DNA of 32,000 nt from Nitrosospira multiformis ATCC 25196 (GCF_000196355.1 NC_007614.1:2160001-2192000), one strand, 5' to 3'. Shown: positions 8,084-27,706, numbered from the stretch's first letter. Program-made: numbers and translations. Notes: generated from the sequence alone by a model not told the origin.

Positions 8084-9205
8084 ATGAAAACGCTGGATTT
8101 TCGCCGGGCGGGTGCGCACATTGCCTTGGTCGTGCTGTTCGCTGTTTGTCCGGTTGCGTTTGCTGATGAAAACGATGAAGTTGCCAAACTCTACCAGCAG
8201 GGCAATCTGGACAAGGCACTGGAACAGGCAAATGCGTACCTCGCGCTCAAGCCAAAGGATCCGCAGATGCGGTTTCACAAGGGGTTGATACTGACCGAGC
8301 AGCAGAAAATCCCTGATGCGATCAAGGTCTTTTCTTCACTGTCGGAAGATTACCCCAACCTGCCCGAGCCGTATAATAACCTGGCGGTACTCTATGCCAG
8401 CCAGGGCCTGTATGAAAAGGCGAGGGGAGCGCTGGAGGCCGCTATACGCACTCACCCCAGCTACTCCATTGCGCATGAGAACCTGGGTGATATCTATGCA
8501 AAACTGGCCAGCGAGGCTTACGGCAAGGCCTTGCAACTGGACCAGGGCAACGCCGCGGCCCAGACCAAGCTTGCAATGATCAAGGATTTATTCATCGGCA
8601 AATCCGGCGCGATAAAAACTGCATCCGCTGCCACTGCGCCGGCACCGCCTGCTTCAGCCGCCCCCCGCTCCCCTGCGGCCACTACGCCATCTCCTCCCCG
8701 ATCCGCTGCTCCCGCAACCCCGCCTGCTTCCGTCCACCCCGCGCCCGGTAAAGCCCCGCAAAAATCAGCGGAAAAAAAAACTGAAAAGGCGGAAAAATCA
8801 GCACCGGGAAAGATAGCCGCGGTTGAAACACATTCACCAGAAAAGAAAACCGATGTTCCGGACGAATCCGACGAAATCATCAAAACTGTCAATGCGTGGG
8901 CCAGGGCATGGTCCGACAAGAACGTGACGGCATACTTCGCATTCTACGCGGCTGACTTTCAAACTCCTCGTGGCGTCAAGCGCACAACATGGGAAAAAAC
9001 GCGACGCGACCGCATCATCAAGCCAAAAGCCATCCAGGTGGAGATCACTCACCCCAAGGTAACTTTAATCAATCCAGCACGCGCGAGGGTAAGCTTCAGG
9101 CAACTCTATCACTCCGACGCATTCAAACACGATTCGTCCAAAACACTTGAGATGGTTAAAACGGACGGGAAGTGGCAGATCCGACAGGAGCGCTCCGCGA
9201 AATGA
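8084..9205 (+). CDS. TPR protein with Pro/Ala-rich linker and C-terminal Cds6/NTF2-like domain
   Basis: 373-aa ORF with a GGAGAAG RBS and signal peptide (ALVVLFAVCPVAFA/DE). It has N-terminal TPRs, a low-complexity APAPPASAAPRSP... linker, and a C-terminal domain (WARAWSDKNVTAYFAFYAADF...GKWQI) that recurs in the next gene. Confidence 0.8.
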   Translation: MKTLDFRRAGAHIALVVLFAVCPVAFADENDEVAKLYQQGNLDKALEQANAYLALKPKDPQMRFHKGLILTEQQKIPDAIKVFSSLSEDYPNLPEPYNNLAVLYASQGLYEKARGALEAAIRTHPSYSIAHENLGDIYAKLASEAYGKALQLDQGNAAAQTKLAMIKDLFIGKSGAIKTASAATAPAPPASAAPRSPAATTPSPPRSAAPATPPASVHPAPGKAPQKSAEKKTEKAEKSAPGKIAAVETHSPEKKTDVPDESDEIIKTVNAWARAWSDKNVTAYFAFYAADFQTPRGVKRTTWEKTRRDRIIKPKAIQVEITHPKVTLINPARARVSFRQLYHSDAFKHDSSKTLEMVKTDGKWQIRQERSAK

Positions 9206-11705: not shown

Positions 11706-12386
11706 ATGAGCATGTCAGCACCTAAAGCTTTTTTCTCGCTTGGATTTGCGATCGCGCTGTGGCTGCCGGCCCCGGCTTTGCACGCTCTCCCTTTTGCAGA
11801 TACGGTAGTCAGCTTTACTCCCGGAGACAGTAGCTTCCCTGGCAGCATCTATGGGGTGGAGGATGATAGCGGTGGCATTTACACGGGCCTCTCGGGAGAA
11901 GGCGTTTTTGATGCCCGGGCGGTAACGGCCCTGGATGGAGCGGTGCTCGGACTGGGCGGCTCAGCCGGAACCCCCGGATCCATCACTCTGCACTTCAGCC
12001 GCGGTGAAGTAGTGGATGGGCCCGGCGCGGATCTGCGGTTGTACGACACGTTCAGCTTCCGGGACGGGTTCAACCTGGAAATAAGCGCGGATGGGACACA
12101 CTTCATGAACGCGTTTTTCTCCGCCGGGGATTTGTCGTATTTTGAATGTTCTCTTCAGCAACCTTGCACTGACGATGTAGACATTGCAGCCCTCCAGCTG
12201 GATGCGTTCAGCTACCTCCGGATCACTGCCGCGGGTAACATTGCTCAAGGCTTTCCAGAAGCCTATACACTGGATGCCGTGGAGGCGCTCCACTATCGTT
12301 CCAGCACGGTTCCCGAGCCCGGAACACTTGCATTGCTGGGGCTTGCTGCCGTCGGTCTGGCTTTTGCTCGCCGGCGTAAAGATTGA
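11706..12386 (+). CDS. PEP-CTERM sorting-domain protein
   Basis: N-terminal signal peptide and a C-terminal VPEPGTLALLGLAAVGLAFARRRKD, which is the canonical PEP motif plus TM helix plus basic cluster. Confidence 0.8.
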   Translation: MSMSAPKAFFSLGFAIALWLPAPALHALPFADTVVSFTPGDSSFPGSIYGVEDDSGGIYTGLSGEGVFDARAVTALDGAVLGLGGSAGTPGSITLHFSRGEVVDGPGADLRLYDTFSFRDGFNLEISADGTHFMNAFFSAGDLSYFECSLQQPCTDDVDIAALQLDAFSYLRITAAGNIAQGFPEAYTLDAVEALHYRSSTVPEPGTLALLGLAAVGLAFARRRKD

Positions 12387-12472
12387 ATTGCAGATCGAAT
12401 TGCGCTCGAACCCGCTCCGGGAACGACCACGGCTGATTGTCTTATCTTGCTTATCTTTTATCGGGAGAAATC

Positions 12473-13297
12473 ATGTTCACCCTGTCCACCTTCAGGCTCC
12501 TCATTGCGCTATCGATCAGTGCCTGGCTGGCAATGCTTTCCGGTTGCGCCACTACCACGGCAGGCGGTGCGGTCGGCGCAAACCGTTCCCAGCTTTTGCT
12601 CATATCCTCGGAACAGCTGGAGCAAACGGCGGCACAAGGCTATAGTCAGCTGAAAACGGAAGCGACCCAAAAAGGCGCCCTGAACACGAATGAAAAACTG
12701 CTGCAACGAGTGCGTGCTATCGCTCGCCGCATCGAGCCGCAAACGGGCATATTTCGAAAGGACGCTCCCGCGTGGAACTGGGAAGTCAATGTAATCGACA
12801 GCGATGAGCTTAATGCTTTTTGCATGCCTGGCGGAAAAATCATGTTTTATTCCGGGCTGATCAATCAGCTCAAATTGACAGATGAAGAAATCGCTGTGGT
12901 GATGGGGCATGAAATTGCCCACGCCCTGCGCGAGCACTCGCGCGAGCAGGTGTCGCAGGCTATTGCGGCGCAAACGGCACTGGGAGTGGGAACCGCAGTG
13001 TTCGGTCTCAGCCAGACTACCGCTCAGATCGCCGGCATCGGATATCAGGCGTTCATCGCCACCCACTTCAGTCGCACGGACGAAGCCGAAGCGGATCGCA
13101 TCGGGCTCGAATTGTCGGCTCGTGCTGGTTATAATCCCCGGGCCGGGGTCACACTGTGGCAAAAAATGATCAATGCCAATGCGGGAGGACAACTGCCCGA
13201 GTTTCTGAGCAGTCACCCTGCTGATTCCACCCGTGTGCAGCAGATCGAGTCGCTGCTGCCGGTCGTCATGCCACTTTATGAAGCAGCCCGCCGATGA
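12473..13297 (+). CDS. M48-family zinc metalloprotease lipoprotein (LoiP/YcaL-like)
   Basis: GGGAGA RBS before ATG 12473, a lipobox (AMLSGC), the HExxH motif HEIAHALREH, and a downstream EADRIGLELSARAGYNP block typical of M48. Confidence 0.85.
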   Translation: MFTLSTFRLLIALSISAWLAMLSGCATTTAGGAVGANRSQLLLISSEQLEQTAAQGYSQLKTEATQKGALNTNEKLLQRVRAIARRIEPQTGIFRKDAPAWNWEVNVIDSDELNAFCMPGGKIMFYSGLINQLKLTDEEIAVVMGHEIAHALREHSREQVSQAIAAQTALGVGTAVFGLSQTTAQIAGIGYQAFIATHFSRTDEAEADRIGLELSARAGYNPRAGVTLWQKMINANAGGQLPEFLSSHPADSTRVQQIESLLPVVMPLYEAARR

Positions 13298-13375
13298 CGC
13301 CCAAAGTCAGGTTAGCCCTCCTCGATATAAGCTGCTTGCGTCGATAAGCCAACAGCATCACTCGTGAAGCAAAAC

Positions 13376-13408
13376 AAAGCCGGGCTTCCTTCCTTTTGGC
13401 CCGGCTTT
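13376..13408 (-). terminator. rho-independent terminator between convergent M48 and S8 genes
   Basis: 10-bp stem AAAGCCGGGC/GCCCGGCTTT with a 13-nt loop. On the minus strand it is followed by GTTTTGCTT. Confidence 0.5.
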
Positions 13409-13440
13409 GCCAACCCGAAAAAACGACCTTCCACCTCCCG

Positions 13441-15201
13441 CTACTTGACTACCGTCACGCTGACGGATGAGGATGCGCTATTTCCCGCCGCATCCTTGGC
13501 GACTACCTGAACAGTATGTGCACCCGCGGCAACATTACGTATATTCCAGTTGTAACCCAGCGTACTTCCCTTTCCGGTAGCCTTGAGCACGCCGTCGATG
13601 TAGAGCGCATAGGTAATTCCGGAAGCGCCGCTATCATCGCTTGCATTTACGCTGATGGGCACGTTGCTTCCCGAAACATTGCCTGTGACCGGATTTACGA
13701 TCTTCACCTGTGGCGCGGTAGTATCCCTGGCCACCGTTGTCGTTCCGTTTGCCACATTCACCGAGACGGTGGTCGAAGCCTTGGAGTTGCCGGCCGCATC
13801 GAATGCATAAGCGGTCAGGTTCGCCATACCGTTGGCTACGCCTGCCGAATCCCAGGTGAAGGCGAACGGCGCCGTGGTGTCGACTGCGACTGTGGTATTG
13901 TTGACCCGCAACTCGACACGGGTCACGCCGACGTTATCGCTCGCAGCCACGTTTACGCCGACCAGACCTGTTACGCTTGATCCGCCAGCAGGGGAAGTGA
14001 TGGAAACCGCCGGGGCCTGCGTGTCTCCGGCGACCACTGCCGAGGCCGCCGCCTGCACCGCGCGTGCAGCATCAACCCGTCCATAGCCATAATAGGGATC
14101 GCGCCCCGCTGTGCCCAGATCCACGGCAGTTGAAAACAGCAGACTCTCGATCTGGGTATTGGATAATGTCGGCTTTGCCGCCATCATGAGCGCCACCACG
14201 CCGGCCGTTACCGGACTTGAGAATGATGTGCCGGAAGCCGCGCCATAGCCGCCCCCCATAGTCGTCGTCCAAATTCCGGCTCCAGGCGCGGCAAGGGAGA
14301 TGTAGTTTCCGTAGCTCGACCAACTGGCTCTGAAGTCGTTCGCATCTGTAGCGGCTACAGCTACCATCGATGTCGTTACTGCATAATTCTGGAGCACTCC
14401 CGTATTTCCGCCACTCACGATCACCAGGCCACCTTTATCCTTCATGTATTGCGCCGCGCTCCGGGTGCTCGCACTGTCGGTCAGTCCGAGGAAGCTGGCA
14501 TTGGCGACGCGAACGCCGCGGTCTGCCGCATAGATAAGCCCTTGGGAAATCGCACTCCAGGTGGCATATCCAGTACTCCCGCTCACGCGGACAGGCATTA
14601 TTTTAGCCAACGCCGCCACGCCGGCAACGCCTTGGGCATTGTTTGCCATGGCTGCCGCTGACCCTGCAACCTTGGTTCCATGCCCGTAAACATCCGACGT
14701 GTTGGAATTGTTTTCGTAGAAATTCCAGCCTGGAACAAGCTGGGGTGAGAGATCAGGGTGATTCGGGTCAACTCCTGAATCCAGGATGGCGATGGTCACG
14801 CCGCTGCCCAGGGAACTGTCCCAGGCGGACGGAGCGCCAATCTTGGGCAAATGCCAGGCGCTGCCATAGTAGGGATCGTTCGGTATGAGCGCGGGTTCGA
14901 CTTCCTGGTCGATCTCGGCAAACTTGAGCGCCGGATGATGCGCAAGCCTTGCCGCCACCGCCTTCTCAGAGGCATTACCCGGCAAGTCGACGATGTACAG
15001 ATCGCTCTGCCCGATCTTCCTGCCCTTGCCGCCATGTTCGCCCAGAACCTTGGCCAGTTCCTTTTCCGGCAAGCCGGCACGCGGCATGACCAGGATGCGA
15101 CCCTTCGCCCAGCCAAGCGGCTTGTTCATTCCAGGCCCCCTGCCCTCCGGAGGCTCTGCACTGGAAATGACCGGACCCAATCCCAGCAAAACTGCCAGTA
15201 T
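13441..15201. repeat. direct repeat copy A (S8 gene body), mosaic 70-99% identity to 17846-19612
   Basis: Hand alignment at offset 4405-4411 nt. Near-identity blocks lie at about 13570-14030 and 14790-15201. Homology ends abruptly at 15201, inside the signal-peptide h-region. Confidence 0.85.
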
Positions 15202-15321
15202 GCCGCTCCAAAGGGGATACCAAGGTTTGGAGATGTGCTGCGAGTTGCGAGTGCTTGATTGAATAATGCCTGAAGCGGGTTCTCTTGAGCCAGTTGCAGG
15301 CGCTTTATGATTGATATTCAC
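13441..15321 (-). CDS. secreted S8 subtilisin-family serine protease with I9-like propeptide and two C-terminal Ig-like (Big_7-type) domains, paralog 1
   Basis: Catalytic triad contexts AILDSGVD, HGTKVAG and GTSFSSPVTAG. Two DT(Q/T)AP...ASD..G... Ig-like repeats are present. Best start is GTG 15321, 7 nt after GAGGAGG. The ORF track start at 15411 has no RBS, and the GTG start gives a length (626 aa) essentially equal to paralog 2. Confidence 0.9.
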   Translation of the reverse strand: MNINHKAPATGSREPASGIIQSSTRNSQHISKPWYPLWSGILAVLLGLGPVISSAEPPEGRGPGMNKPLGWAKGRILVMPRAGLPEKELAKVLGEHGGKGRKIGQSDLYIVDLPGNASEKAVAARLAHHPALKFAEIDQEVEPALIPNDPYYGSAWHLPKIGAPSAWDSSLGSGVTIAILDSGVDPNHPDLSPQLVPGWNFYENNSNTSDVYGHGTKVAGSAAAMANNAQGVAGVAALAKIMPVRVSGSTGYATWSAISQGLIYAADRGVRVANASFLGLTDSASTRSAAQYMKDKGGLVIVSGGNTGVLQNYAVTTSMVAVAATDANDFRASWSSYGNYISLAAPGAGIWTTTMGGGYGAASGTSFSSPVTAGVVALMMAAKPTLSNTQIESLLFSTAVDLGTAGRDPYYGYGRVDAARAVQAAASAVVAGDTQAPAVSITSPAGGSSVTGLVGVNVAASDNVGVTRVELRVNNTTVAVDTTAPFAFTWDSAGVANGMANLTAYAFDAAGNSKASTTVSVNVANGTTTVARDTTAPQVKIVNPVTGNVSGSNVPISVNASDDSGASGITYALYIDGVLKATGKGSTLGYNWNIRNVAAGAHTVQVVAKDAAGNSASSSVSVTVVK

Positions 15322-15908
15322 GTAGTTCCTCCTCTTGGGGAGGCGGAACCGCCTAGATAGGCCGGGTGCCGAAAAACGTACTGAGCCGGAGCATCGAGAT
15401 CCACTCAACACGTTCTAATAGCTTCTCGTCATCCAAAGAATCGACAAGAAAGAAAATGGCATTATCTGGCAGTCCTGCCGTCCTGGGGCCTTGAGCCCGG
15501 TAGACCGATGACTTTGCGTCCCCCGCTTTCGCGAGATTTGCCTTTTACAGATTAAAAATTGCAGCGTTATCGTATCTGAACTCCCCAGGGGGTATGGGTG
15601 AAGCAACTGCACAAAAATCATTCTGTTCGTTGCTTTATTTAAAGGTGAAAAATGCTGCCGCTCCCGAACCCCGAGGAGATTTCGAAATTTGCAATTCTTG
15701 CAAACCAAACTTCCTGCCACTCCGGGTCAAACAGTACTCCTCCTGGTCGAAGAATTTTACATATCACTGCAGAATGGAAGAGCTCGAAGCAAACAAGGCT
15801 GATTTTATTGGAGTTTTAATTTAGGCACGAAAATTGCTAAAGAAGCTCCGATAGGCCGAAAACGAAGTTTCGAACCTATCCAACAAAAACTTATCAGGAG
15901 AACAAATA

Positions 15909-16580
15909 ATGAAGAGTCATTTGAAGGGAGCGTTTGCTGCACTGGGACTGCTGTCTGTGGCAGGAGGTGCCCAGGCAGCAATTTTCCAAATCGATTTCAC
16001 TACTGCCGGCGCGTTTTCCGGCACCGCGCCGTCCCAGCCAACAGATCCGAATGCAATTTTTGCGACAGCGACTTTCGACGATCACAACAGCTCCGGGTCG
16101 GTGACGCTGACAATGAATGTCTTTAATAATTTGTCCGCTGGCGCTTACGTCAATGACTGGTACTTCAACGTCGATTCGGCGCCATTGAGCGGTATCACCT
16201 TTGTGAGCGGAGTGGCCGCGCAGACCATCCAGAACGGAACAGATGCGTTCAAGGCCGATGGCACCGGCGGCAACTTTGATTTCGCATTTCATTTTCCCAC
16301 CCGCAATCCCGGAGAGTTGGGGCAAGGTCATACGTCCGTATATACCTTGACGGGAGGGGGCATTACTGCCGATTCTTTTAACGCGGTATCGGTATCCGCA
16401 CCGCCCAACGCGGGTAATGGCGGATATGTCAGCGCGCTCCACGTCCAGGGCTATGGCAACAGTGTCTGGATCGGCACTGACGGCGGGCCACCTTCCAATG
16501 AAATACCAGAACCGGCAACGCTTGCACTACTCGGGCTTGGCCTTTTGGGAATCGCGGCAACCAGGCGCCAGAAACGCTAG
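15909..16580 (+). CDS. PEP-CTERM sorting-domain protein
   Basis: AGGAGA RBS, signal peptide (LGLLSVAGGAQA/AI), and C-terminal IPEPATLALLGLGLLGIAATRRQKR. Confidence 0.85.
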   Translation: MKSHLKGAFAALGLLSVAGGAQAAIFQIDFTTAGAFSGTAPSQPTDPNAIFATATFDDHNSSGSVTLTMNVFNNLSAGAYVNDWYFNVDSAPLSGITFVSGVAAQTIQNGTDAFKADGTGGNFDFAFHFPTRNPGELGQGHTSVYTLTGGGITADSFNAVSVSAPPNAGNGGYVSALHVQGYGNSVWIGTDGGPPSNEIPEPATLALLGLGLLGIAATRRQKR

Positions 16581-16610
16581 AGCCTGCAAACAAGACAACT
16601 TGCATGATCA

Positions 16611-16636
16611 AAAACCCCGCTCTCGCGGGGTTTTTG
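16611..16636 (+). terminator. rho-independent terminator
   Basis: AAAACCCCGC-TCTC-GCGGGGTTTTT lies 30 nt after the stop at 16580. It is flanked by an A-tract and a T-tract, so it could act in both directions. Confidence 0.8.
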
Positions 16637-16951
16637 TTATCGATAATATTTACACCTCCTTGCCCGTCAAGCCACGGTAGTGCCCGTAGAGCGAAACCCC
16701 GAGGATAAATATTCCGGCGATGCTCTTCCCAATAATCGATATCAACTCCCTCATGCACCCAGGCCTCTCGCGCCCCAGCCTTCATTCATATCGAAAATAT
16801 TTTCATGCCATATATTATTCCTATTACTATCTCAGCAGCGTTTGATTTGACACATGCTCAAGCGGAACAGCTAGATGTAAAAAAAATCGACAGGGATGGG
16901 TGGTAATAACACCGAAATATCCCAGCTTCCGGTTCATCTCTGTCGTTACCC

Positions 16952-16980
16952 AAAAAAAAGCTCGCCGAAGCGAGCTTTTT
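16952..16980 (-). terminator. rho-independent terminator
   Basis: A8-GCTCGC-CGAA-GCGAGC-T5. On the minus strand the stem is followed by U8, about 20 nt after the stop at 17001. Confidence 0.8.
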
Positions 16981-17000
16981 AACTGGAATAGCGAATCTGT

Positions 17001-17672
17001 TTAAGCAAGCCTATTTCTCTGCCTGCGCGATACACCCCATCCCAGCAGCCCCAGCCCGAGAAGGGCAAGCGTCGTCGGCTCCGGAAGCTCTTGCGGCGGC
17101 GGACCTCCGAGTTCGGTAGGCCCCAGGCGAACTTGCTGTAAATCAGAAATCCCCGTCATTTGAACAGTACTGTCGATCGTTACTTTCACCATTACCTGGT
17201 TATCCAGGGAAAAACCGGTGAAAAAGTTCTGCCCGGAACCACTAAGTGGCTGATTCAAGAAGCTGAAGGTTGTGCCGAACTGATCCAACAGAAAGATGTT
17301 GGCAGAACCATCCGCGGCAGCATCAATATTGAACTGGACTTTCGAGAATCCAAGATTTGGATCGACCAAGCCGAAATCGATAAAGTTAAATGAACCATCA
17401 GCTGCTTCAATACGCGCCTGCCCTCCCGCCGGAGCAAAAATGTCTTCGTTACTTGTGAATCTGACAAGCTCACCGGTAGTCGGCGGATTGAGCTGTCCGA
17501 TAACTTCATGATCAAGAGTTGGATCAGGTTGATTAAAAAGTACATTATCCACATCTCCCGAGCCCCCTACCAGTCCTGGGCTTAACTGAAGAGTCGCGAA
17601 TGTATTTCCTGATAAAAGCACGCCGAGCAAAGCAACTCCGGCGCAGATCTTAAGTTTTCTCATGCCGTTCAT
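17001..17672 (-). CDS. PEP-CTERM sorting-domain protein
   Basis: GGGAGGGG RBS, signal peptide (VALLGVLLSGNTFA/TL), and C-terminal LPEPTTLALLGLGLLGWGVSRRQRNRLA. GC is visibly lower than in the neighbouring genes. Confidence 0.85.
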   Translation of the reverse strand: MNGMRKLKICAGVALLGVLLSGNTFATLQLSPGLVGGSGDVDNVLFNQPDPTLDHEVIGQLNPPTTGELVRFTSNEDIFAPAGGQARIEAADGSFNFIDFGLVDPNLGFSKVQFNIDAAADGSANIFLLDQFGTTFSFLNQPLSGSGQNFFTGFSLDNQVMVKVTIDSTVQMTGISDLQQVRLGPTELGGPPPQELPEPTTLALLGLGLLGWGVSRRQRNRLA

Positions 17673-17845
17673 GTTATGCCCCTCCCAAGTAAGAAGTTAT
17701 CTCCCTCGCTTGATCTGAAGCAAGTTGGATGCCAATGAGAAAGTCTATGAAAAACCTCGAGTTTCTTCCATCTTCCCGGAAGGGGTGTAAAAATTTACGA
17801 CATGTGAACGGGTAATAACATGCTCCTTGCTACTGCTTCTATCGG

Positions 17846-19612
17846 TTACTTGATCACTGTCACATTCACCGAAGCAGATGCTGTATTGCCCGCCGCATCT
17901 CTGGCGACCGTCCAGATAGTGTGTGCTCCCGCGCGCACATTGCTTGGGCGGGTATTCCAGCTATATCCTAACGTACTTCCTTTTCCGGTAGCCTTGAGCA
18001 CGCCGTCGATGTAGAGCGTACAGGTGATTCCGGAAGCGCCGCTATCATCGCTTGCATTCACGCTGATGGCCACATTGCTGCCCGAAACATTGCCTGTGAC
18101 CGGATTTACGATCTTCACCTGTGGCGCGGTAGTATCCCTGGCCACCGTTGTCGTTCCGTTTGCCACATTCACCGAGACGGTGGTCGAAGCCTTGGAGTTG
18201 CCGGCCGCATCGAATGCATAAGCGGTCAGGTTCGCCATACCGTTGGCTACGCCTGCCGAATCCCAGGTGAAGGCGAACGGCGCCGTGGTGTCGACTGCGA
18301 CTGTGGTATTGTTGACCCGCAACTCGACACGAGTCACGCCGACGTTATCGCTCGCAGCCACGTTTACGCCGACCAGGCCTGTTACGCTTGATCCGCCAGC
18401 AGGGGAAGTGATGGAAACCGCCGGAGCCTGCGTATCTGCTGTCAGCGTGGTGCCGGCGGCGGCCTGTACGGCACGCGCCGCATTCACTCGCCCATAGCCG
18501 TAGTAAGGATCGCGCCCTGGCGTTCCAAGATCCACCGCCGTGGAATACAGCAGACTCTCGATCTGGGTATTGGATAATGTCGGCTTTGCCGCCATCATGA
18601 GCGCCACCACCCCAGCCGTTACCGGGCTTGAGAACGACGTGCCGGAAACCGCGCCATAGCCGCCACCCTTGGTAGTGCTCCAGATTCCTGCACCGGGAGC
18701 CGCGAGAGCAATGTAATTACCATAACTAGACCAGCTCGTCCGTACGTCATTTCCGTCAGTGGCAGAGACAGGAATCATGCTGGTGGTTGCGGCATAATTT
18801 TGCTGTACGCCAGTGTTGCCCCCGCTGACAATGACAAGGCCGCCTTTGTTCTTCAGGTATTGCGCCGCACTGCGAGTACTCGCACTGTCGGTCAGTCCGA
18901 GAAAGCTGGCATTGGCGACGCGAACCCCGCGGTCTGCCGCATAGATAAGCCCTTGGGAAATCGCACTCCAGGTGGCATACCCATCAGAGCCACTTACCCG
19001 GATCGGCATGATCTTCGCCCGTGCCGCCACCGAGGCCACCCCCAGCGCGTTATTGCCTGCCGCTCCCGCCGCACCCGCAACCTTGGTGCCATGCCCGTAA
19101 ACATCCGATGTATTGGAATTGTTCTCGTAGAAATTCCAGCCTGGCACCAGTTCCGTAGCCAGATCAGGGTGAGTGCTATCGACTCCTGAATCCAGGATGG
19201 CGATGGTCACGCCGCTGCCCAGGGAACTGTCCCAGGCGGACGGAGCGCCAATCTTGGGCAAATGCCAGGCGCTGCCATAGTAGGGATCGTTCGGAATGAG
19301 CGCGGGTTCGACTTCCTGGTCGATCTCGGCAAACTTGAGCGCCGGATGATGCGCAAGCCTTGCCGCCACCGCCTTCTCGGAGGCATTACCCGGCAAGTCG
19401 ACGATATACAGATCGCTCTGCCCGATCTTCCTGCCCTTGCCGCCATGTTCGCCCAGAACCTTGGCCAGTTCCTTTTCCGGCAAGCCGGCACGCGGCATGA
19501 CCAGGATGCGACCCTTCGCCCAGCCAACCGGCTTGTTCATTCCAGGCCCCCTGCCCTCCGGAGGCTCTGCACTGGAAATGACCGGACCCAATCCCAGCAA
19601 AACTGCCAGTAT
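17846..19612. repeat. direct repeat copy B (S8 gene body)
   Basis: Counterpart of 13441-15201. Copy B carries 6 extra nt near its 3' end (protein NTRPSNVRAG versus NIRNVAAG in copy A). Confidence 0.85.
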
Positions 19613-19726
19613 CGCCCCTGCAAAACGGCAGCTGGATGAGGCAACCTTTGCGCGTATGTTTGATATGAACCTCTCGGCAAGCCGGGCCGCTACACCGGCC
19701 TGCTCTTCCCTCTTGTCGGCGTTCAT
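17846..19726 (-). CDS. secreted S8 subtilisin-family serine protease with I9-like propeptide and two C-terminal Ig-like domains, paralog 2
   Basis: 626 aa, with ATG 19726 preceded by GAAAGGAG. It has the same triad contexts and domain order as 13441-15321. There is no other in-frame ATG/GTG/TTG before the h-region. Confidence 0.9.
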   Translation of the reverse strand: MNADKREEQAGVAARLAERFISNIRAKVASSSCRFAGAILAVLLGLGPVISSAEPPEGRGPGMNKPVGWAKGRILVMPRAGLPEKELAKVLGEHGGKGRKIGQSDLYIVDLPGNASEKAVAARLAHHPALKFAEIDQEVEPALIPNDPYYGSAWHLPKIGAPSAWDSSLGSGVTIAILDSGVDSTHPDLATELVPGWNFYENNSNTSDVYGHGTKVAGAAGAAGNNALGVASVAARAKIMPIRVSGSDGYATWSAISQGLIYAADRGVRVANASFLGLTDSASTRSAAQYLKNKGGLVIVSGGNTGVQQNYAATTSMIPVSATDGNDVRTSWSSYGNYIALAAPGAGIWSTTKGGGYGAVSGTSFSSPVTAGVVALMMAAKPTLSNTQIESLLYSTAVDLGTPGRDPYYGYGRVNAARAVQAAAGTTLTADTQAPAVSITSPAGGSSVTGLVGVNVAASDNVGVTRVELRVNNTTVAVDTTAPFAFTWDSAGVANGMANLTAYAFDAAGNSKASTTVSVNVANGTTTVARDTTAPQVKIVNPVTGNVSGSNVAISVNASDDSGASGITCTLYIDGVLKATGKGSTLGYSWNTRPSNVRAGAHTIWTVARDAAGNTASASVNVTVIK

Positions 19727-20391
19727 GTTCGACTCCTTTCTAATTGTGAAAAATCAAGTTCCAAAAAAACAGCAATAAATCTGCCGGTCGTTACGTTCAT
19801 GACACGTCACTGCGCCTTTCCATAGAAATCTGGAAATAAGCAAGCCAATACTTATCCAATCCGGGGTTGCTGATTGAGATGCACCACTCTGGCCCGAAGC
19901 TGGAGTTCCGAGACTCCTGCCGGAATATCAATCGAGCTAGCGGCTCGCGCCGTAGCCTGCAATGGAATGGTCCAGGGAATTAGCTGAAGAAATTTTCTGT
20001 GACCTCATGGGCAAATCGAGCTGCCACAAAACAAACTGACAAACTGAATGGGTTCCTGCAGAACAGTGCTCTCTCAAATATTTCTTTTGTTGTTTCCAGT
20101 CCCTATCTTTTCCAATAAATGATCAGCTTGAGCCCGTTTGAAGCATTTTTTATGCCAGTCCTGCTTTTTTAGCTAAAACAGACACTTGAGGGGAAGCGGG
20201 TTCCCTTTGACCGTCGCCTTCCGGCGACGCAGAAATGAGCGGTAGAGGATAAATTCTTGAGAATAAGGGGATGTGAGTGTCGTTGAAGAACGACGAGACT
20301 ATGACGGATGAAGTCCGGGGGTAAGGAATATCTCTGGGGATAAGGATTATCTTCTGGCCTAACCGTACCGCTTATCCATTCACAGCTCGCC

Positions 20392-20427: not shown

Positions 20428-20919
20428 CTACTCTGTAGTGGCACGGACGAATGTTCCCGTCACGGTCACTATTCCCGGTTCGGGCAAGGCTTCAATCCGG
20501 CCCTTTTCGAAACGCACGCGCTGTAACTGCATTGCTACAGTCCACTTCAGCCAGTCCGCGAAGGGCACAGCCTTAAACGTGACCTGGACCTGATCATCCC
20601 CCAGTGCATCAATGCCATTCAAAGCATGAGAAAGTCCGAGGATGTCTGCCTGGGTTTGCGCGAGCGCATGCAAATCGCCGGATAAGGGGGGCGGAGATGG
20701 AGTAACCTTTATACGCTCGTACTCGGCCGCCTGTTGCTCGAACTCTTCCGCCTGGACGCGCAGTTGCGGAAGGTTCGAGCGCAATCGGGTACGCGCCCTG
20801 TCCGCCGAGCTGACCAGCCCCAGATAAAGTCCCGCGCTCAAAATCATTCCCAATATTGTGATGACCCGCCGCTCCCGGGGAGAGCGTGATTCCCATGCTT
20901 TCCGCAGCTGTTTCCTCAC
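20428..20919 (-). CDS. gspM: type II secretion system protein M
   Basis: 163 aa. GTG 20919 overlaps the gspL stop (GTGA). A short cytoplasmic N-terminus is followed by one TM helix (VITILGMILSAGLYLGLV) and a periplasmic domain. Its position after gspL supports the call. Confidence 0.8.
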   Translation of the reverse strand: MRKQLRKAWESRSPRERRVITILGMILSAGLYLGLVSSADRARTRLRSNLPQLRVQAEEFEQQAAEYERIKVTPSPPPLSGDLHALAQTQADILGLSHALNGIDALGDDQVQVTFKAVPFADWLKWTVAMQLQRVRFEKGRIEALPEPGIVTVTGTFVRATTE

Positions 20920-22172
20920 GGAGTCGTCACCACGAGCACAACGATTCCGGCACCCCCGTCTGTCGGTGCCGGGTTGATATCGACACTCAGATCGTTTTCC
21001 CGCAACCGGGCGGCAATACGGTTCGCGAGTCCTTCCTCCGCGGCCAGCTCAAGCGCTATTCTCCCGCTATCATAGGAAATCGCATGCAGACTGCCAGAAG
21101 CCAGTTCGCTCAATGCCGGTCCCACTGTTTTGATCATGGGCAAGAAATCGGCCGTATCGGGAACGCCTGCCGCATGCCGCGCTTCGATGAGCTTTCGCCG
21201 CATCTGTAGCGCAGGGTCCACTACCGCGACCGCAGCCGGAAATAGGGCGCGAAACCGGGTTTCCATTTGCTGATGCAAGGCACGCTCTTCATTGGCAAGC
21301 AATGCCCAGTCAGCGGCAACGGCCAGGGAATGGAGCACCAACGCTGCCGCGCCGATCCAGACTGCCGGGCGCAGACGTGAAAGAAGTCCCCTGAAAGGAG
21401 GCCAGCGTCTGTGTTTCTGCAGCAAGCTGATACTGGATTGCTGAGCCCCGCGCCAATCCCAGGTCCCCGCAATGTATACAGGAATGCCGAGCACCCGTTG
21501 CCACGCTTCGATATCTGGCGCTGCCGCAGGATTCTTCATGATCTCACCGGCACTCTCCTCAAATGTCATTGCGCCTTCAGGCTCAATTGTATAGAGCGCG
21601 ATGGATGCCGGTCTCGCTCCATGCCTTTCCGCATCTTCGAGCATGAGATGCAATGACAACGGAGGAGACGCATCGCCTCCGCAATCTGTTGCTCCCCCTT
21701 CAAACTCGCCGGTGCGCACAAAACCTTCCCGGCCCTCCCAGGCGAAACTCCATTCTCCCGGCGTCCATGGCAATAACAGTGTTTCGCAGTAAATTTCATC
21801 CACTTGGATAGCAGCTGCCTGCAGCGCATCGAGACACTGCGTCAACCTTTTCTTATCCACTGCCGCGAGTATGTCCTCGCCTCCAGCGGAACCGATCCAG
21901 CTCACTTGATTAGCCTCAGGCTCACGCAGCATTTCTTCTTCGACCGCAAACGCCAGTACTGACCCAGGCTGCCGCCTCGCAGCGTCAGGTAAGCGAGCCC
22001 GTGTGAGCAAAACCTGGGCAGCTGGAATGATCAACTGGACAGAACTCGCGTTTTTCGGCAGATCAGCTATCTGCCCCTCCCCTGTCAAGGGCAATCCATC
22101 ATCGCCCGTCCATATCCACTGGCAACTCAATGATTCCTCCAGAAGAGGACACCGGATTCTTAGCAGGCTCAT
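20916..22172 (-). CDS. gspL: type II secretion system protein L
   Basis: 418 aa. ATG 22172 overlaps the gspK stop (ATGA). It has an actin-like cytoplasmic N-domain, a single TM helix (AVWIGAAALVLHSLAVAADWAL) and a periplasmic C-domain. The call also rests on operon position. Confidence 0.85.
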   Translation of the reverse strand: MSLLRIRCPLLEESLSCQWIWTGDDGLPLTGEGQIADLPKNASSVQLIIPAAQVLLTRARLPDAARRQPGSVLAFAVEEEMLREPEANQVSWIGSAGGEDILAAVDKKRLTQCLDALQAAAIQVDEIYCETLLLPWTPGEWSFAWEGREGFVRTGEFEGGATDCGGDASPPLSLHLMLEDAERHGARPASIALYTIEPEGAMTFEESAGEIMKNPAAAPDIEAWQRVLGIPVYIAGTWDWRGAQQSSISLLQKHRRWPPFRGLLSRLRPAVWIGAAALVLHSLAVAADWALLANEERALHQQMETRFRALFPAAVAVVDPALQMRRKLIEARHAAGVPDTADFLPMIKTVGPALSELASGSLHAISYDSGRIALELAAEEGLANRIAARLRENDLSVDINPAPTDGGAGIVVLVVTTP

Positions 22173-23083
22173 GAATATTTACGCCAGACAATAACGGGCC
22201 ACCCGCCCTCCTCACGGTTAAGGAGGACCACTCCCCCGGCATGGGCTTCGCCGATAACTACACTGAGTGCCGCAAGAAAATAATTGCTACTGGTGCCAAT
22301 ATCGTTTTCCTCCACCGCAGCGCCCTGAGGAAGACGATTGAGAAAATCGGCATGATCACGAAAATGGGCGCGCGCGCGCTGGAAAGTCAATATGCGGGCA
22401 TTTCCAATTCCCAGACCCTCAACAATGGCAGCAAGCACTTCGGGGGGCGCCGTATTGACATTGACAGTGGTAAAGCTCGGCAGGGCCGTCACGAACGGAC
22501 GCAAACGCGCGCGGATATCCCTGTTGAAACCGCGAATGCGGGCCAGTTCCGCTACATCGGTCAAGGGCCTGTTGGCAGTAAGGTAAGAAGGGTTCAGCAC
22601 ACTGTAATATTCATCCTCGGCGCCGTGCTGGGGACGAGGTTCGCTGTCCACGTCTATCCAGTCAGCCAATGCATCGGCAAGCGCATCCGGCAAATCGAGC
22701 AAGGCCAGCAAGCGCTTGAAGTAAGCAAGCTGTGTCGCACTGATTTTTCCATCGGGAGCCAGGTTGTTCAGATTGAACAAGCCCTGCTGATCGTGGATGT
22801 GGCCCGTGAGTTCACCGTTTTCAATGGGCATCGCCGGAATCTGCAATGCCCAGGGTTCGCCCAGGTGATCGACGCTGCCCATCCGGCCATCATCGCTCAG
22901 CACAGCGCGGACCCAGTCCACCCCCGCCTTGACCATCGCCTGCGCCTGAACGTAATCCTGCGCAAGCTCGCTTTGCCGTGACCAGATACCCTGTGCGGTA
23001 ATGATCGCTGTTGCGGTTATCGACGCGAGCGCCACGACACCCATGGCAAGCACGACTGCTACCCCACGTTGTCCTGTTCTCAT
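22169..23083 (-). CDS. gspK: type II secretion minor pseudopilin K
   Basis: 304 aa. The N-terminus QRG/VAVVLAMGVVAL lacks Glu+5, as is typical for GspK. It also has a GEPWA motif and HhH-like C-terminal repeats (VNVNTAPPEVLAAI). Confidence 0.85.
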   Translation of the reverse strand: MRTGQRGVAVVLAMGVVALASITATAIITAQGIWSRQSELAQDYVQAQAMVKAGVDWVRAVLSDDGRMGSVDHLGEPWALQIPAMPIENGELTGHIHDQQGLFNLNNLAPDGKISATQLAYFKRLLALLDLPDALADALADWIDVDSEPRPQHGAEDEYYSVLNPSYLTANRPLTDVAELARIRGFNRDIRARLRPFVTALPSFTTVNVNTAPPEVLAAIVEGLGIGNARILTFQRARAHFRDHADFLNRLPQGAAVEENDIGTSSNYFLAALSVVIGEAHAGGVVLLNREEGGWPVIVWRKYS

Positions 23084-23087
23084 GATG

Positions 23088-23708
23088 TCATTGGAAAATA
23101 CGTTCTATTTCCTCCCCCGAAGCAAGGGCAATGCGCAGGCGCACGGCTTGGGGAATGGAAGAAATCGTAGACACCGGCGCGTCAGGCGCTCCACTTGGCC
23201 ATGCATTCACCCAGGCACGATTTGCGGTAAGATACTGCAACTCCATTTTTGCCACCCCGCTCAATACCGGATAACGCATGGCAACTGTCCGGGGACCGAT
23301 GTCGAGACCAGGCCACAACCAAAGCTCGATTTCCCGTTTATCATTCAACTGGTAAGCAATCCGCCGTGCGGCATCCGTTTCTTCGATGGAACCCAGACGA
23401 CTGAATTCCATGTAAGGCAACAAGCCTCCATCCGGCGCCGCTTTAATCACTCCGCGCCAGGCCGGCAGGACGCCTGAGCCGGTTCGAACCGGACGCGGTA
23501 TCGCAAGTTGCACATCATGCTCAAACCTTGTGAGGAATAAATCTATGCGGCGCCATTTTTCAGTTTCCCGCCTGACATACTCTTGCGCGTCGAGTATCGC
23601 TCCAAGTCCACGATAAGACATCACTGCCAGCAAAGACAGAACAGTCAGCGCAACCAGCAGCTCAATCAGGGTAAATCCCCGGAATCCGGTTTCACGCATG
23701 GATTTCAT
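23088..23708 (-). CDS. gspJ: type II secretion minor pseudopilin J
   Basis: Prepilin-type N-terminus MKSMRETGFRG/FTLIELLVAL, 206 aa. Confidence 0.85.
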   Translation of the reverse strand: MKSMRETGFRGFTLIELLVALTVLSLLAVMSYRGLGAILDAQEYVRRETEKWRRIDLFLTRFEHDVQLAIPRPVRTGSGVLPAWRGVIKAAPDGGLLPYMEFSRLGSIEETDAARRIAYQLNDKREIELWLWPGLDIGPRTVAMRYPVLSGVAKMELQYLTANRAWVNAWPSGAPDAPVSTISSIPQAVRLRIALASGEEIERIFQ

Positions 23709-23824
23709 GGAAATGGATTACGAATACCTTCCTCGCCGGGGACACGAAGGCACTAAGTCATAGGAGCGTTGAGCAGCATCTTCCATCCCATATAAGCTGC
23801 CATCGTCCTGTTCCGGCAGCTTGC

Positions 23825-24232
23825 TCACGGATTCCCCGGGACTGCCGGTTGCGCCAGATATCCTGTCAGATGCGCAAGCAGGTGCGATTCCCCAGCAGGC
23901 GCAAATACCGAAATATTGGCTCGCCGGAATGAGGGATTTGCGGTTTCGGTAATATCCGCCCGCCACGTGAAATCCATGTTTCCTTGTTTTGCTGTTCCAC
24001 GATATGTGCCCGGCGACGGCCAGGCGCCGCGGGTACGCTGCTCTGCCAGGAAATTTTCCGCAACCCATCCCGCCAGCAGTCGCGAGCGCAATTCGCCGAC
24101 AGTGAGCGTGCCCTGCCCTGCAACACGCAATGCGGCCATGAGAGCAACCGCAATGATTGCCAGTGCGACCAGAACCTCAACCAGCGTGAATCCACGGCCT
24201 CTACCGCAGCTGCCCGGATATGATTTCATCAT
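23825..24232 (-). CDS. gspI: type II secretion minor pseudopilin I
   Basis: Prepilin-type N-terminus ...GRGRG/FTLVEVLVAL. ATG 24232/24229 is preceded by GAGGGAAGG. The ORF track start at 24307 is unlikely because it would overlap gspH by 107 nt and has no RBS. Confidence 0.8.
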   Translation of the reverse strand: MMKSYPGSCGRGRGFTLVEVLVALAIIAVALMAALRVAGQGTLTVGELRSRLLAGWVAENFLAEQRTRGAWPSPGTYRGTAKQGNMDFTWRADITETANPSFRRANISVFAPAGESHLLAHLTGYLAQPAVPGNP

Positions 24233-24719
24233 TCGGCCTTCCCTCTCCCGGCAATGCCTGCACATCGCCGACCGGAGATCCTGTGACTGTATAGCGCTCC
24301 GTCCCAAAAGATATCTTTATGGCATAAGCCGGCATGAAACCGTGAGGATTGAACTCCAGTCGCATAAAATCTGCTGGCGACATCTCGATCAACATGCCCG
24401 CGATCTTCATACCCTGCGGAAATGTTCGTTCCCCGAAGAGATCATTGTTACGAATTTCCGACCAACCGGCACCCCATTGATTCCCCCAGAACCGATAGCT
24501 TGCGCCGTCTGTTGTCCAGGCGAGAGATCTTCCTGACATACGCGCCTCGGTTCCCGCCAGGTCAAGGAGTTGCGCCAGCCGTTCCGCTTCGACGCGAAGA
24601 AGAGCTCGTTCGTCCGGTCGCACGGTGCTGCTGATCAGTCCGGCAAAAAGCCCGATGATCACCAGTGCGACAAGCACTTCGAGGAGCGTGAATCCGCCTC
24701 CGGCTTTTATCTCAGTCAC
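24201..24719 (-). CDS. gspH: type II secretion minor pseudopilin H
   Basis: GTG 24719 follows AGGA. Prepilin-type N-terminus MTEIKAGG/GFTLLEVLVAL, 172 aa. Confidence 0.8.
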   Translation of the reverse strand: MTEIKAGGGFTLLEVLVALVIIGLFAGLISSTVRPDERALLRVEAERLAQLLDLAGTEARMSGRSLAWTTDGASYRFWGNQWGAGWSEIRNNDLFGERTFPQGMKIAGMLIEMSPADFMRLEFNPHGFMPAYAIKISFGTERYTVTGSPVGDVQALPGEGRPNDEIISGQLR

Positions 24720-24733
24720 GAATCCTGTTGGCC

Positions 24734-25255
24734 TTACAGGTTCCAGGAGCCGATATCCGCATCGTTACCGTCTCCCCCGCGGGCGCCATCTGCCCCGAAA
24801 CTGAAAACATCGATTTCGCCGTGAACCCCGGGGTTCAGGTATTGATAAGGGTTGCCCCAGGGATCCTTCGGAAGGCGCTCGACATATCCTCCGGCTTTCC
24901 AATTGGGTGGAATCGGTGGATCGGTCGGCTTCGTTACCAGCGCCTGCAATCCCTGTTCAGTCTTGGGGTAGCGATGGTTGTCGAGGCGGTACAGCTTGAG
25001 CATCTGCATCAAGCTTGCGACATCCTGTTTTGCTGCGATGATACGCGCTTCGTCAGGGCGGCTGATGATTTTCGGCACCACCATTACAGCGAGAATTCCT
25101 AGAATCACGACCACCACCATGACCTCGAGCAAAGTAAAGCCGCTCTGCCTTCCGGGCCGTCCATACTCTGAGGCGATCAAATGGCCTGGAGCTTGTTGTC
25201 TTTCAGAGAGTAGATTGGAACCAGATTTCTCCATCATTTTTACGTAAATACCCAT
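24734..25255 (-). CDS. gspG: type II secretion major pseudopilin G
   Basis: The mature part is unmistakable: G/FTLLEVMVVVVILGILAVMVVPKI...AKQDVASLMQMLKLYRLDN...DPWGNPYQY...SFGADG. The start is uncertain: ATG 25255, ATG 25237/25234, or in-frame TTG 25180. None has a good SD. Confidence 0.9.
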   Translation of the reverse strand: MGIYVKMMEKSGSNLLSERQQAPGHLIASEYGRPGRQSGFTLLEVMVVVVILGILAVMVVPKIISRPDEARIIAAKQDVASLMQMLKLYRLDNHRYPKTEQGLQALVTKPTDPPIPPNWKAGGYVERLPKDPWGNPYQYLNPGVHGEIDVFSFGADGARGGDGNDADIGSWNL

Positions 25256-25618
25256 CAAAAAACGGACAAAATGGAACGAAGATTACCCAAGAAATTGTTC
25301 ATTGTCGATTCCGGTTTTGCACCATGGCACGCGCCTCCCGATCTGTCCTCCTAATCCACGTCTCGATGCAGCGCAACATTGGCCTCGCCGATAAAAATTT
25401 TCAGCTGCCTCAGGAAGTGACGTCAACAATAATCTCAAAAAAAACATATCCCTTATTCGCCAAACAGGAATAAATTAACGCTCATTTTGCATGTTTAGAA
25501 TCAGGGAAGCCGGAAAACAAATGACAGACGGGAACAACGCCTGCAGTTGCATCAAGCACGGAATTTTTCATACGTAGCAATTTTCATTATCAAACTTCTA
25601 AAGGGGAATACACTTATC

Positions 25619-27457: not shown

Positions 27458-27506
27458 CAGCTTGTAAGATTATTACCTGGGGTAGAAAACTCCAGGCAAT
27501 GGAAAG

Positions 27507-27533
27507 CGGTGAGATGGCTCGACTGTCTCACCG
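27507..27533 (+). terminator. possible terminator after the cupredoxin-propeller gene
   Basis: 8-bp stem CGGTGAGA/TCTCACCG with an 11-nt loop, 50 nt after the stop. The downstream stretch is only moderately T-rich (GCTCTCTGTATTTCC). Confidence 0.3.
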
Positions 27534-27706
27534 GCTCTCTGTATTTCCTCCTGTTCACATACTAAAAACTGGGATGCACTCAGGCAAGATTGGCCGCAGC
27601 ACCTCGACAGAACTACCTAGATGCCACTGCGACAGCCATCGTCACATCACCCATGCGCCACGCAGGCGACATCCTGTTATCTTCGAGGCAGCTGCAGGCA
27701 CATCGT

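Follow-up and report, generated by a model that had tools for sequence, protein, structure and literature searches.

We analysed a 32,000-nucleotide (nt) stretch of the Nitrosospira multiformis ATCC 25196 genome (GCF_000196355.1, NC_007614.1:2160001-2192000; hereafter the window, with positions counted from its first nucleotide), which encodes three small secreted proteins with PEP-CTERM sorting signals (PEP1 to PEP3) and two subtilases of the S8 family with Big_7 domains (S8-1 and S8-2). PEP2 was 100% identical to a protein of this strain, and the nearest related loci were those of other N. multiformis strains. A class I riboswitch aptamer for cyclic diguanylate (c-di-GMP) was found in the 5' leader of the S8-1 gene. 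Sequence comparisons showed that the riboswitch, the subtilase gene and a PEP-CTERM gene apparently form a conserved and undescribed arrangement that recurs in several betaproteobacterial lineages. By analogy with Clostridioides difficile PPEP-1 and its sortase substrates, which it resembles, the arrangement may be a module of matrix proteins and secreted proteases regulated by c-di-GMP and sigma-54, a reading to which we give about an even chance.

The PEP-CTERM genes were located at 11706-12386 (PEP1, plus strand, 226 amino acids [aa]), 15909-16580 (PEP2, plus strand, 223 aa) and 17001-17672 (PEP3, minus strand, 223 aa). PEP2 and PEP3 are flanked on both sides by the subtilase genes, S8-1 at 13441-15321 and S8-2 at 17846-19726, both on the minus strand. 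An earlier reading of the window from the sequence alone (the sequence-only reading) had reported the three open reading frames (ORFs), their C-terminal sequences and the position of PEP2 and PEP3 between S8 paralogs; all of these were confirmed, the ORFs and C-termini from the translations, and the paralogs were 91% identical in protein. Some of its figures were revised. S8-1 most likely starts at GTG 15321, with an AGGAGG Shine-Dalgarno site, instead of at 15411, and with this correction both paralogs are 626 aa long. The gap between S8-2 and PEP3 measured 173 nt rather than 174 nt. The guanine-plus-cytosine content of PEP3, given earlier as about 46%, was 50.3% over the whole gene, with 100-nt samples ranging from 44 to 64%, and those of the S8 genes were 58.7% and 59.6%.

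The riboswitch in the S8-1 leader, which was absent from the sequence-only reading, is the most informative feature of the window. The aptamer (RF01051; 15465-15552, minus strand) matched the c-di-GMP-I model over its full length (model positions 1-87 of 87) with 69.7 bits against a gathering score of 35 (E 6.7e-12), and it was the sole Rfam match above threshold in the window. It sits 143 nt upstream of the corrected S8-1 start codon, and the RNA belongs only to the S8-1 leader because PEP2 is divergent. In the Vc2 numbering, as we take it to apply here, the position equivalent to G20 is a G (AAGGCAAA), which fits c-di-GMP rather than 3'3'-cyclic GMP-AMP as the predicted ligand. A second riboswitch in the S8-2 leader was considered and rejected, as no RF01051 match appeared there even at E up to 1. 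The same aptamer was found upstream of an S8 gene in 18 other loci (62-80 bits), which span Nitrosospira (including N. lacus), Nitrosomonas (including N. nitrosa), Noviherbaspirillum (sp. L7-7A), Rhizobacter and a Burkholderiaceae metagenome-assembled genome (MAG), and which include every related locus of the genome scan that covers the S8 upstream region. Where both S8 copies could be seen, the riboswitch preceded solely the copy after the PEP gene or genes in six of seven loci; the MAG locus L014 carried it on both.

The neighbourhood of the riboswitch showed three gene orders. The order S8, one or two PEP genes, riboswitch, S8 was found in Nl7, NpAV, Nsp14, N. lacus, N. aestuarii, N. nitrosa, an uncultured Nitrosomonas and several MAGs. 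Nl12, MGR_bin421 and Nitrosomonas ACE_PRO54 showed PEP, riboswitch, S8, and Noviherbaspirillum, Rhizobacter and a Burkholderiaceae MAG showed riboswitch, S8 and a convergent PEP gene. The adjacency of S8 (Big_7) and PEP-CTERM genes, for which the sequence-only reading had proposed a comparison across genomes, thus extends well past close relatives and was seen in Nitrosospira, Nitrosomonas, Noviherbaspirillum and Rhizobacter/Burkholderiaceae MAGs, and nearly all informative S8 loci had a PEP-CTERM gene adjoining the S8 gene. The passenger domains of the adjoining genes fall into five or more unrelated families, among them choice-of-anchor N, XDD4, cistern and those of PEP2 and PEP3. In our literature search, no paper connected subtilases to PEP-CTERM proteins or to c-di-GMP riboswitches, and nothing relevant turned up on riboswitches in either Nitrosospira or Nitrosomonas.

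An adjacent PEP-CTERM gene was missing from two loci whose flanking sequence was long enough to show one, those of Nitrosomonas sp. Nm84 and Roseateles toxinivorans. Among the loci with a riboswitch-S8 unit, Nm84 was the only one with no such neighbour. The flanks of the riboswitch-S8 unit in Nm84 (L017, 7115-7188 and flanks) hold a tRNA gene, a 1318-aa ORF and, as judged by eye, transposase-fragment-like ORFs, which suggests that this locus was rearranged. In R. toxinivorans (L041 6001-8136), the S8/Big_7 protease is N-terminally fused to a passenger domain of the MHFG family of PEP-CTERM proteins. A second case was present in an uncultured Roseateles sequence, and the fusions scored 145-152 bits for NF038119. 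No riboswitch was found at the R. toxinivorans locus, and the fused protease had no PEP-CTERM tail.

The slot between the S8 genes varies within N. multiformis, and comparison of the sequences points to cassette turnover. Where strain Nl7 (L009 13101-14098) has an intact promoter and a choice-of-anchor-N PEP-CTERM gene, ATCC 25196 has the decayed promoter of a third PEP gene (16795-16892, minus strand), in which motif 1 is intact (TGTCGATTTTTTTTACA, 16892-16876) and the -24/-12 site has lost the GC of its -12 element (TGGCATGAAAATATTT, 16810-16795). The slot is filled instead by PEP2, in the opposite orientation and with its own promoter and terminator. The possibility that S8 adjacency is a property of the PEP3 family was rejected, as distant PEP3 homologues (Sabulicella, a metagenome contig; other phyla) had no S8 neighbour. 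The constant element is therefore the riboswitch-S8 unit together with some PEP-CTERM gene.

These comparisons bear on the main rival of the proposed module, which is co-regulation without an enzyme-substrate relation. The subtilases would then be general extracellular, nutritional or matrix-remodelling proteases, and their adjacency to PEP-CTERM genes would come from a shared biofilm programme or from a recombination hot spot. With 39 PEP-CTERM proteins encoded in ATCC 25196 (Haft et al. 2006, PMC1569441 Table 1), such neighbours are abundant, and the direct S8 repeats together with the conserved promoter and sorting-signal ends of the PEP genes would favour cassette exchange. The retention of riboswitch and S8 gene in Nm84 and the distant PEP3 homologues that do not lie beside S8 genes fit this explanation as well. 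However, the adjacency holds across several lineages, with unrelated passenger families and in both gene orientations, and the Roseateles fusion points to physical association. We regard a shared regulon as a possible explanation, though one that we would not favour on present evidence.

Folding models were used to consider how the riboswitch might act on S8-1. The expression platform (15325-15359, minus strand) consists of a block, UAUCUAGGCGG-GUUCCGCCUCC...GAGGAGGAAC, that is conserved in 10 Nitrosospira leaders, and the RNA block CCUAUCUAGGCGGUUCCGCCUCC...GAGGAGGAAC was common to all of the 10 aligned. In the models, GUUCCGCCUC is predicted to pair with the Shine-Dalgarno region through nine pairs and one mismatch; alternatively, the preceding UAUCUAGGCGGUUCC is predicted to pair with the aptamer 3' strand GGACUGCCAGAUA. 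Between the aptamer and the Shine-Dalgarno helix lies a terminator-like hairpin followed by UUUUU (15372-15416, minus strand), which was present in Nitrosospira leaders and not in those of Nitrosomonas. ViennaRNA gave a probability of an unpaired Shine-Dalgarno site of 0.20 with the aptamer closed; with the 3' strand free, the value was 0.21-0.41 in the Nitrosospira leaders and 0.87 in one of three modelled Nitrosomonas leaders. The models lean towards an OFF switch, in which the ligand would close the aptamer and leave the 9-pair helix over the Shine-Dalgarno site. The protease would then be made at low c-di-GMP and promote release or dispersal, as does C. difficile PPEP-1.

An ON switch would instead imply maturation: the subtilase would be made together with the matrix at high c-di-GMP and would process PEP-CTERM proteins to their functional form, as secreted proteases do with RbmA in Vibrio cholerae biofilms. 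The direction of the riboswitch only leans OFF in the models, and a small alternative hairpin read from the sequence, AGGCG-GUUC-CGCCU, could expose the Shine-Dalgarno site in the closed state of the aptamer. Nevertheless, the models gave slightly greater exposure of this site with the aptamer open, and together with the promoter comparison described below we consider the maturation reading unlikely. In Noviherbaspirillum and N. nitrosa, genes of c-di-GMP turnover (GGDEF/EAL) were observed no more than a few kb from the riboswitch-S8 unit (L042 10012-12330; L043 1-467), and an ORF in a Nitrosomonas MAG (L022 11752-13407) had a C-terminus that looked GGDEF-like, as judged by eye only.

S8-1 is composed of a propeptide, a catalytic domain (PF00082, 160 bits) and two Big_7 domains (99 bits); S8-2, which lies on the side of the type II secretion system (T2SS) genes and has no riboswitch, likewise has two Big_7 domains and matched PF00082 with 149 bits. 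The catalytic Asp/His/Ser motifs AILDSGVD, YGHGTKVAG and SGTSFSSP were present in both proteins. The closest solved relative of the family was thermitase (S8-2 versus 1thm: E 6.7e-57), and the likeness of the catalytic domain to this broad-specificity enzyme and to subtilisins is a further point in favour of general proteases in a shared regulon. Neither paralog had a PEP-CTERM match, and both end in a Big_7 domain. About 30-40 N-terminal residues precede the hydrophobic segment in S8-1 (15239-15321) and S8-2 (19621-19726); these stretches are unrelated between the paralogs and could be either a long signal-peptide n-region or a signal anchor. In N. lacus, a protein with a Kazal-type serine-protease-inhibitor domain is encoded directly downstream of the second S8 gene (L036 11383-12159).

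The S8 genes form a duplication with 87% DNA identity (13442-15212 versus 17847-19624) that covers coding sequence only, from the stop codon to the signal-peptide region. The identity is mosaic: it reaches 98-100% in the propeptide region and in the first Big_7 region, and in the catalytic domain it is mostly 62-88%. In the S8 tree, the paralogs grouped by species in N. multiformis, NpAV, N. lacus, N. aestuarii and the uncultured Nitrosomonas despite their common tandem arrangement. This clustering and the mosaic identity indicate that the paralogs evolve in concert, with gene conversion keeping some regions of the two copies alike and the catalytic domains diverging.

The two S8 genes also appear to differ in their upstream control. 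A sigma-54-type promoter region (20142-20294, minus strand) was found upstream of S8-2, with a -24/-12 site (TGGCATAAAAAATGCT, 20157-20142) about 415 nt upstream of the ATG and two palindromes, GTCG-N8-CGAC, at 20228-20213 and 20294-20279. The promoter site and the palindromes are kept, with compensating changes, in Nl7, Nl18, NpAV, N. lacus and the MAG loci L013 and L019. The palindromes are similar, though not identical, to the TGTCG half of PEP motif 1. The 414-nt S8-2 leader folded no better than shuffled sequence (z = +1.0), and a search for a sigma-54 or motif-1 site upstream of S8-1 found none. Because S8-2 and the PEP genes both have sigma-54 promoters, at least one protease copy may be co-expressed with its neighbours, which would suit the maturation reading; yet the S8-2 upstream sites differ from PEP motif 1, so co-regulation by the same activator is unsupported.

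All three PEP-CTERM proteins were recognised by both family models for the sorting signal. PEP1, PEP2 and PEP3 scored 28.4, 25.8 and 25.5 bits, respectively, for TIGR02595 (cut-off 16) and 32.4, 32.6 and 29.5 bits for PF07589 (cut-off 20.7), and all matches end 1-6 residues before the stop codon. In the translations, the signals consist of VPEP, IPEP or LPEP, approximately 17 hydrophobic residues and then RRRK, RRQKR or RRQR, and the N-termini of all three proteins are signal-peptide-like. The S8-adjacent PEP proteins of Nitrosospira have a common linker, G-G-x-P-P-x-[QN]-E-[IL]-PEP, which is a candidate only for the site of S8 cleavage.

The sequence-only reading had described the passenger domains as unrelated to one another. 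This was borne out for PEP2 and PEP3: profile-profile comparison of the two families (hhalign) aligned solely the 41-column sorting signal, so the passenger domains are taken as unrelated and remote homology between them was rejected. PEP3 and PEP1 showed a weak similarity (27-29% over about 140 aa, E ~1e-5). AlphaFold models with a predicted local distance difference test score of about 84 for both proteins (PEP3: 84) showed a beta-sandwich in PEP2 and a jelly-roll beta-sandwich in PEP3. A Foldseek search with the PEP3 model returned a weak likeness to the carbohydrate-binding module families CBM4, CBM29 and CBM35 (E 4e-4 to 5e-3, template-modelling [TM] score 0.25-0.4), and the PEP2 model had no significant match among solved structures. 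From these models, a lectin-like, exopolysaccharide-binding role of the passenger domains is plausible but weakly supported.

PEP2 and PEP3 each have a regulatory region of their own. In the published proteobacterial cis-element for PEP-CTERM genes (Haft et al. 2006, PMC1569441), a 17-nt motif that ends in TTTACA is followed, after a spacer of some 63 nt, by a -24/-12 site (GG-N10-GC), and the start codon lies about 71 nt further on; RpoN dependence of a PEP-CTERM gene was demonstrated experimentally for pepA in Aquincola (PMC9850573). Upstream of PEP2 (plus strand), we found a predicted PrsR-type enhancer motif 1 that fits the 17-nt TTTACA motif (GGTCGAAGAATTTTACA, 15745-15761) and, 61 nt past it, a sigma-54 -24/-12 promoter (AGGCACGAAAATTGCT, 15823-15838) located 70 nt before the ATG. 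The PEP3 regulatory region (17719-17802, minus strand) contains motif 1 (TGTCGTAAATTTTTACA, 17802-17786), a 51-nt spacer and a sigma-54 site (TGGCATCCAACTTGCT, 17734-17719) that lies 46 nt before the ATG. Both thus agree with the description of the PrsR/sigma-54 element. The composite motif occurred twice in 32 kb against 0.00 expected, a count that is not an independent test because the pattern was derived from these two sites. Independent support comes from the agreement with the published geometry and from other genomes, in which the same enhancer and sigma-54 architecture stood before 13 more PEP genes that adjoin an S8 gene.

Each gene is also followed by an intrinsic terminator. The one past PEP2 (CCCCGC-TCTC-GCGGGG then TTTTT; 16610-16636, plus strand) and the bidirectional one past PEP3 (GCTCGC-TTCG-GCGAGC then a T run; 16952-16980, minus strand) were identified by reading the sequence, as the consensus terminator scan overlooked both. 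PEP2 and PEP3 are therefore best described, at the level of sequence, as standard exosortase cargo genes in single-gene units, each with a predicted PrsR-type motif, a sigma-54 promoter and its own terminator, and they are probably not co-transcribed with the proteases. PEP1 differs from them: it begins 14 nt past ppiB, no sigma-54/enhancer element was found in the search upstream of it, and a convergent M48 peptidase gene separates it from S8-1; it does not belong to the S8 arrangement. The order ppiB-PEP1-M48 is kept in the Nitrosospira loci L009, L010, L011, L015 and L028.

The sequence-only reading had stressed that the window contains PEP-CTERM genes and no exosortase. Family-profile searches indeed found no exosortase-like family among the larger ORFs of the window. 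The two EpsH exosortases of ATCC 25196, Nmul_A0246 and Nmul_A2521, are encoded elsewhere in the genome, which also encodes EpsI, PrsK, PrsR and PrsT (PMC1569441 Table 1). As PEP-CTERM genes mostly occur as dispersed single-gene operons (Haft et al. 2006, PMC1569441), cargo genes without an exosortase nearby are expected; for this genome the situation is textbook and not notable alone. A TPR protein encoded at 8084-9205 was considered as PrsT and rejected, since it scored 42 bits against a cut-off of 312 and is a generic TPR protein.

The promoters also weigh against the model of the sequence-only reading, an operon-like module of protease and cargo that is coupled to the adjacent T2SS, with S8-2 and PEP3 co-transcribed and the Vibrio rhombosortase/GlyGly-CTERM system as its analogue. 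S8-2 and PEP3 do lie on the same strand, and the terminator scan showed no terminator-like site in the 173-nt gap, as that reading had noted. However, the gap is occupied by the enhancer motif and the sigma-54 promoter of PEP3. This complete enhancer-dependent promoter region and the terminator of PEP3 make co-transcription, for which the gap had been taken as evidence, unlikely as the main mode; read-through from S8-2 may occur but is not needed for PEP3 expression. The seven T2SS genes gspM, L, K, J, I, H and G were identified by family-profile searches at 20428-25258 (minus strand), and T2SS genes adjoin the S8 unit in all Nitrosospira loci. They did so in no other genus seen, and the loci of Nitrosomonas, Noviherbaspirillum (Oxalobacteraceae) and other Burkholderiales retain the riboswitch, S8 and PEP genes without a T2SS. 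The S8 proteins, moreover, carry no sorting signal of their own. Taken together, we consider this model very improbable.

Two further genes lie between the halves of the T2SS cluster (25547-28753). One encodes a 636-aa signal-peptide protein with weak cupredoxin-like and beta-propeller matches and the other a secreted S51 (cyanophycinase-like) peptidase; the arrangement is kept in N. multiformis strains. Both products are possible T2SS cargo.

We infer that the riboswitch-S8-PEP unit serves as a biofilm or floc-matrix module. The PEP-CTERM proteins would be sorted by the exosortase encoded elsewhere and join the extracellular matrix, and the subtilases would be exported, in Nitrosospira plausibly via the neighbouring T2SS. 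Once exported, they would trim, mature or shed the neighbouring or other matrix proteins, with protease output following the c-di-GMP level. A more specific version, which we put forward tentatively and expect to fail more readily than the general one, holds that the riboswitch-preceded S8/Big_7 subtilases are dedicated to exosortase-sorted PEP-CTERM matrix proteins as c-di-GMP-gated sheddases or maturases and form a Gram-negative counterpart of the switch of PPEP-1 and its sortase substrates, that the paralogs split c-di-GMP and sigma-54 inputs between them, and that the slot is an exchangeable cassette site.

Several observations weigh against the matrix-protease module. The link between S8 and PEP-CTERM proteins is known from gene adjacency, for which a shared biofilm regulon could account; the compared loci are phylogenetically related, and their counts are not independent; and Nm84 keeps the riboswitch and the S8 gene with no PEP-CTERM neighbour. 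The terminator-like hairpin of the Nitrosospira leaders lacks a place in the proposed switch logic. Two of the three modelled Nitrosomonas leaders showed no effect, and the effects overall are small and come from thermodynamic models. The leaders are too conserved for covariation tests of the alternative helices, as the strands concerned hardly vary among the ten Nitrosospira leaders. The evidence for a carbohydrate-binding fold is weak for PEP3, given its TM scores, and PEP2 had no structural match. Export of the subtilases by the T2SS rests on adjacency in one genus.

The matrix-protease module matters in two respects. The fate of PEP-CTERM proteins after exosortase processing, including location, release and turnover, is largely unknown in the field, and a conserved protease partner with predicted direct c-di-GMP control would provide a concrete, genetically testable handle on it. 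Ammonia-oxidising bacteria are important for nitrification in soils and wastewater plants, and for the formation of their biofilms and flocs the module would also supply an RNA sensor and a candidate step of dispersal or remodelling.

Among known systems, the GlyGly-CTERM/rhombosortase system of Vibrio, in which the T2SS-secreted protease itself bears the sorting tag, was the comparison chosen by the sequence-only reading. The likeness is that a serine protease, a C-terminal sorting system and a T2SS occur in one neighbourhood. However, the analogy is loose: the S8 proteases here are untagged, the tagged proteins are small non-enzymatic beta-sandwich proteins, and the T2SS linkage is confined to one genus.

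A second comparison is with the PEP-CTERM/exosortase (EpsH/XrtA) system and its PrsK-PrsR-sigma-54 regulation. PEP1 to PEP3 share with it the C-terminal PEP motif, transmembrane helix and Arg-rich tail, PEP2 and PEP3 share the single-gene units with the TTTACA-ending 17-nt motif, spacer and -24/-12 promoter, and the genes for the exosortase and the regulators lie in other parts of the genome. In contrast to the published system, which involves neither a subtilase nor a riboswitch, cargo genes here occupy a conserved slot beside a riboswitch-preceded S8 gene, and PEP1 has no sigma-54 element.

The riboswitch itself resembles other members of RF01051 in its full-length aptamer with the GGCAAA, GAAA tetraloop, GACGCAAAG and CUGCC elements and in its location in a 5' leader. 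It differs in its long-leader expression platform of 114-165 nt (258 nt in one Nitrosomonas MAG) and in its associated gene and host, as neither the S8 subtilase class nor ammonia-oxidisers were found with c-di-GMP riboswitches in the literature searched. c-di-GMP riboswitches have been reported to flank PEP-CTERM genes in Methylophaga (PMC12530212).

The remaining comparison, and the nearest precedent that is known to work, is with C. difficile PPEP-1, a zinc metalloprotease of the M34 family in a Gram-positive host with the sortase/LPXTG system. The gene for ZmpI/PPEP-1 (CD2830) has a class I c-di-GMP riboswitch and is repressed by c-di-GMP, and the enzyme cleaves a sortase-anchored adhesin encoded alongside, CD2831 (PMC6366702). 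In both cases, a class I c-di-GMP riboswitch precedes a secreted protease gene beside genes for C-terminally sorted surface proteins, and the protease and its substrates, here putative, are regulated separately. The enzymes and their settings differ: here the protease is an S8 serine protease and not a Pro-Pro endopeptidase, the bacterium is Gram-negative, and sorting is by exosortase/PEP-CTERM. The neighbouring genes here use sigma-54 promoters, whereas those of C. difficile have class II riboswitches. As an analogy, the resemblance to PPEP-1 is thus functional and architectural rather than one of family membership.

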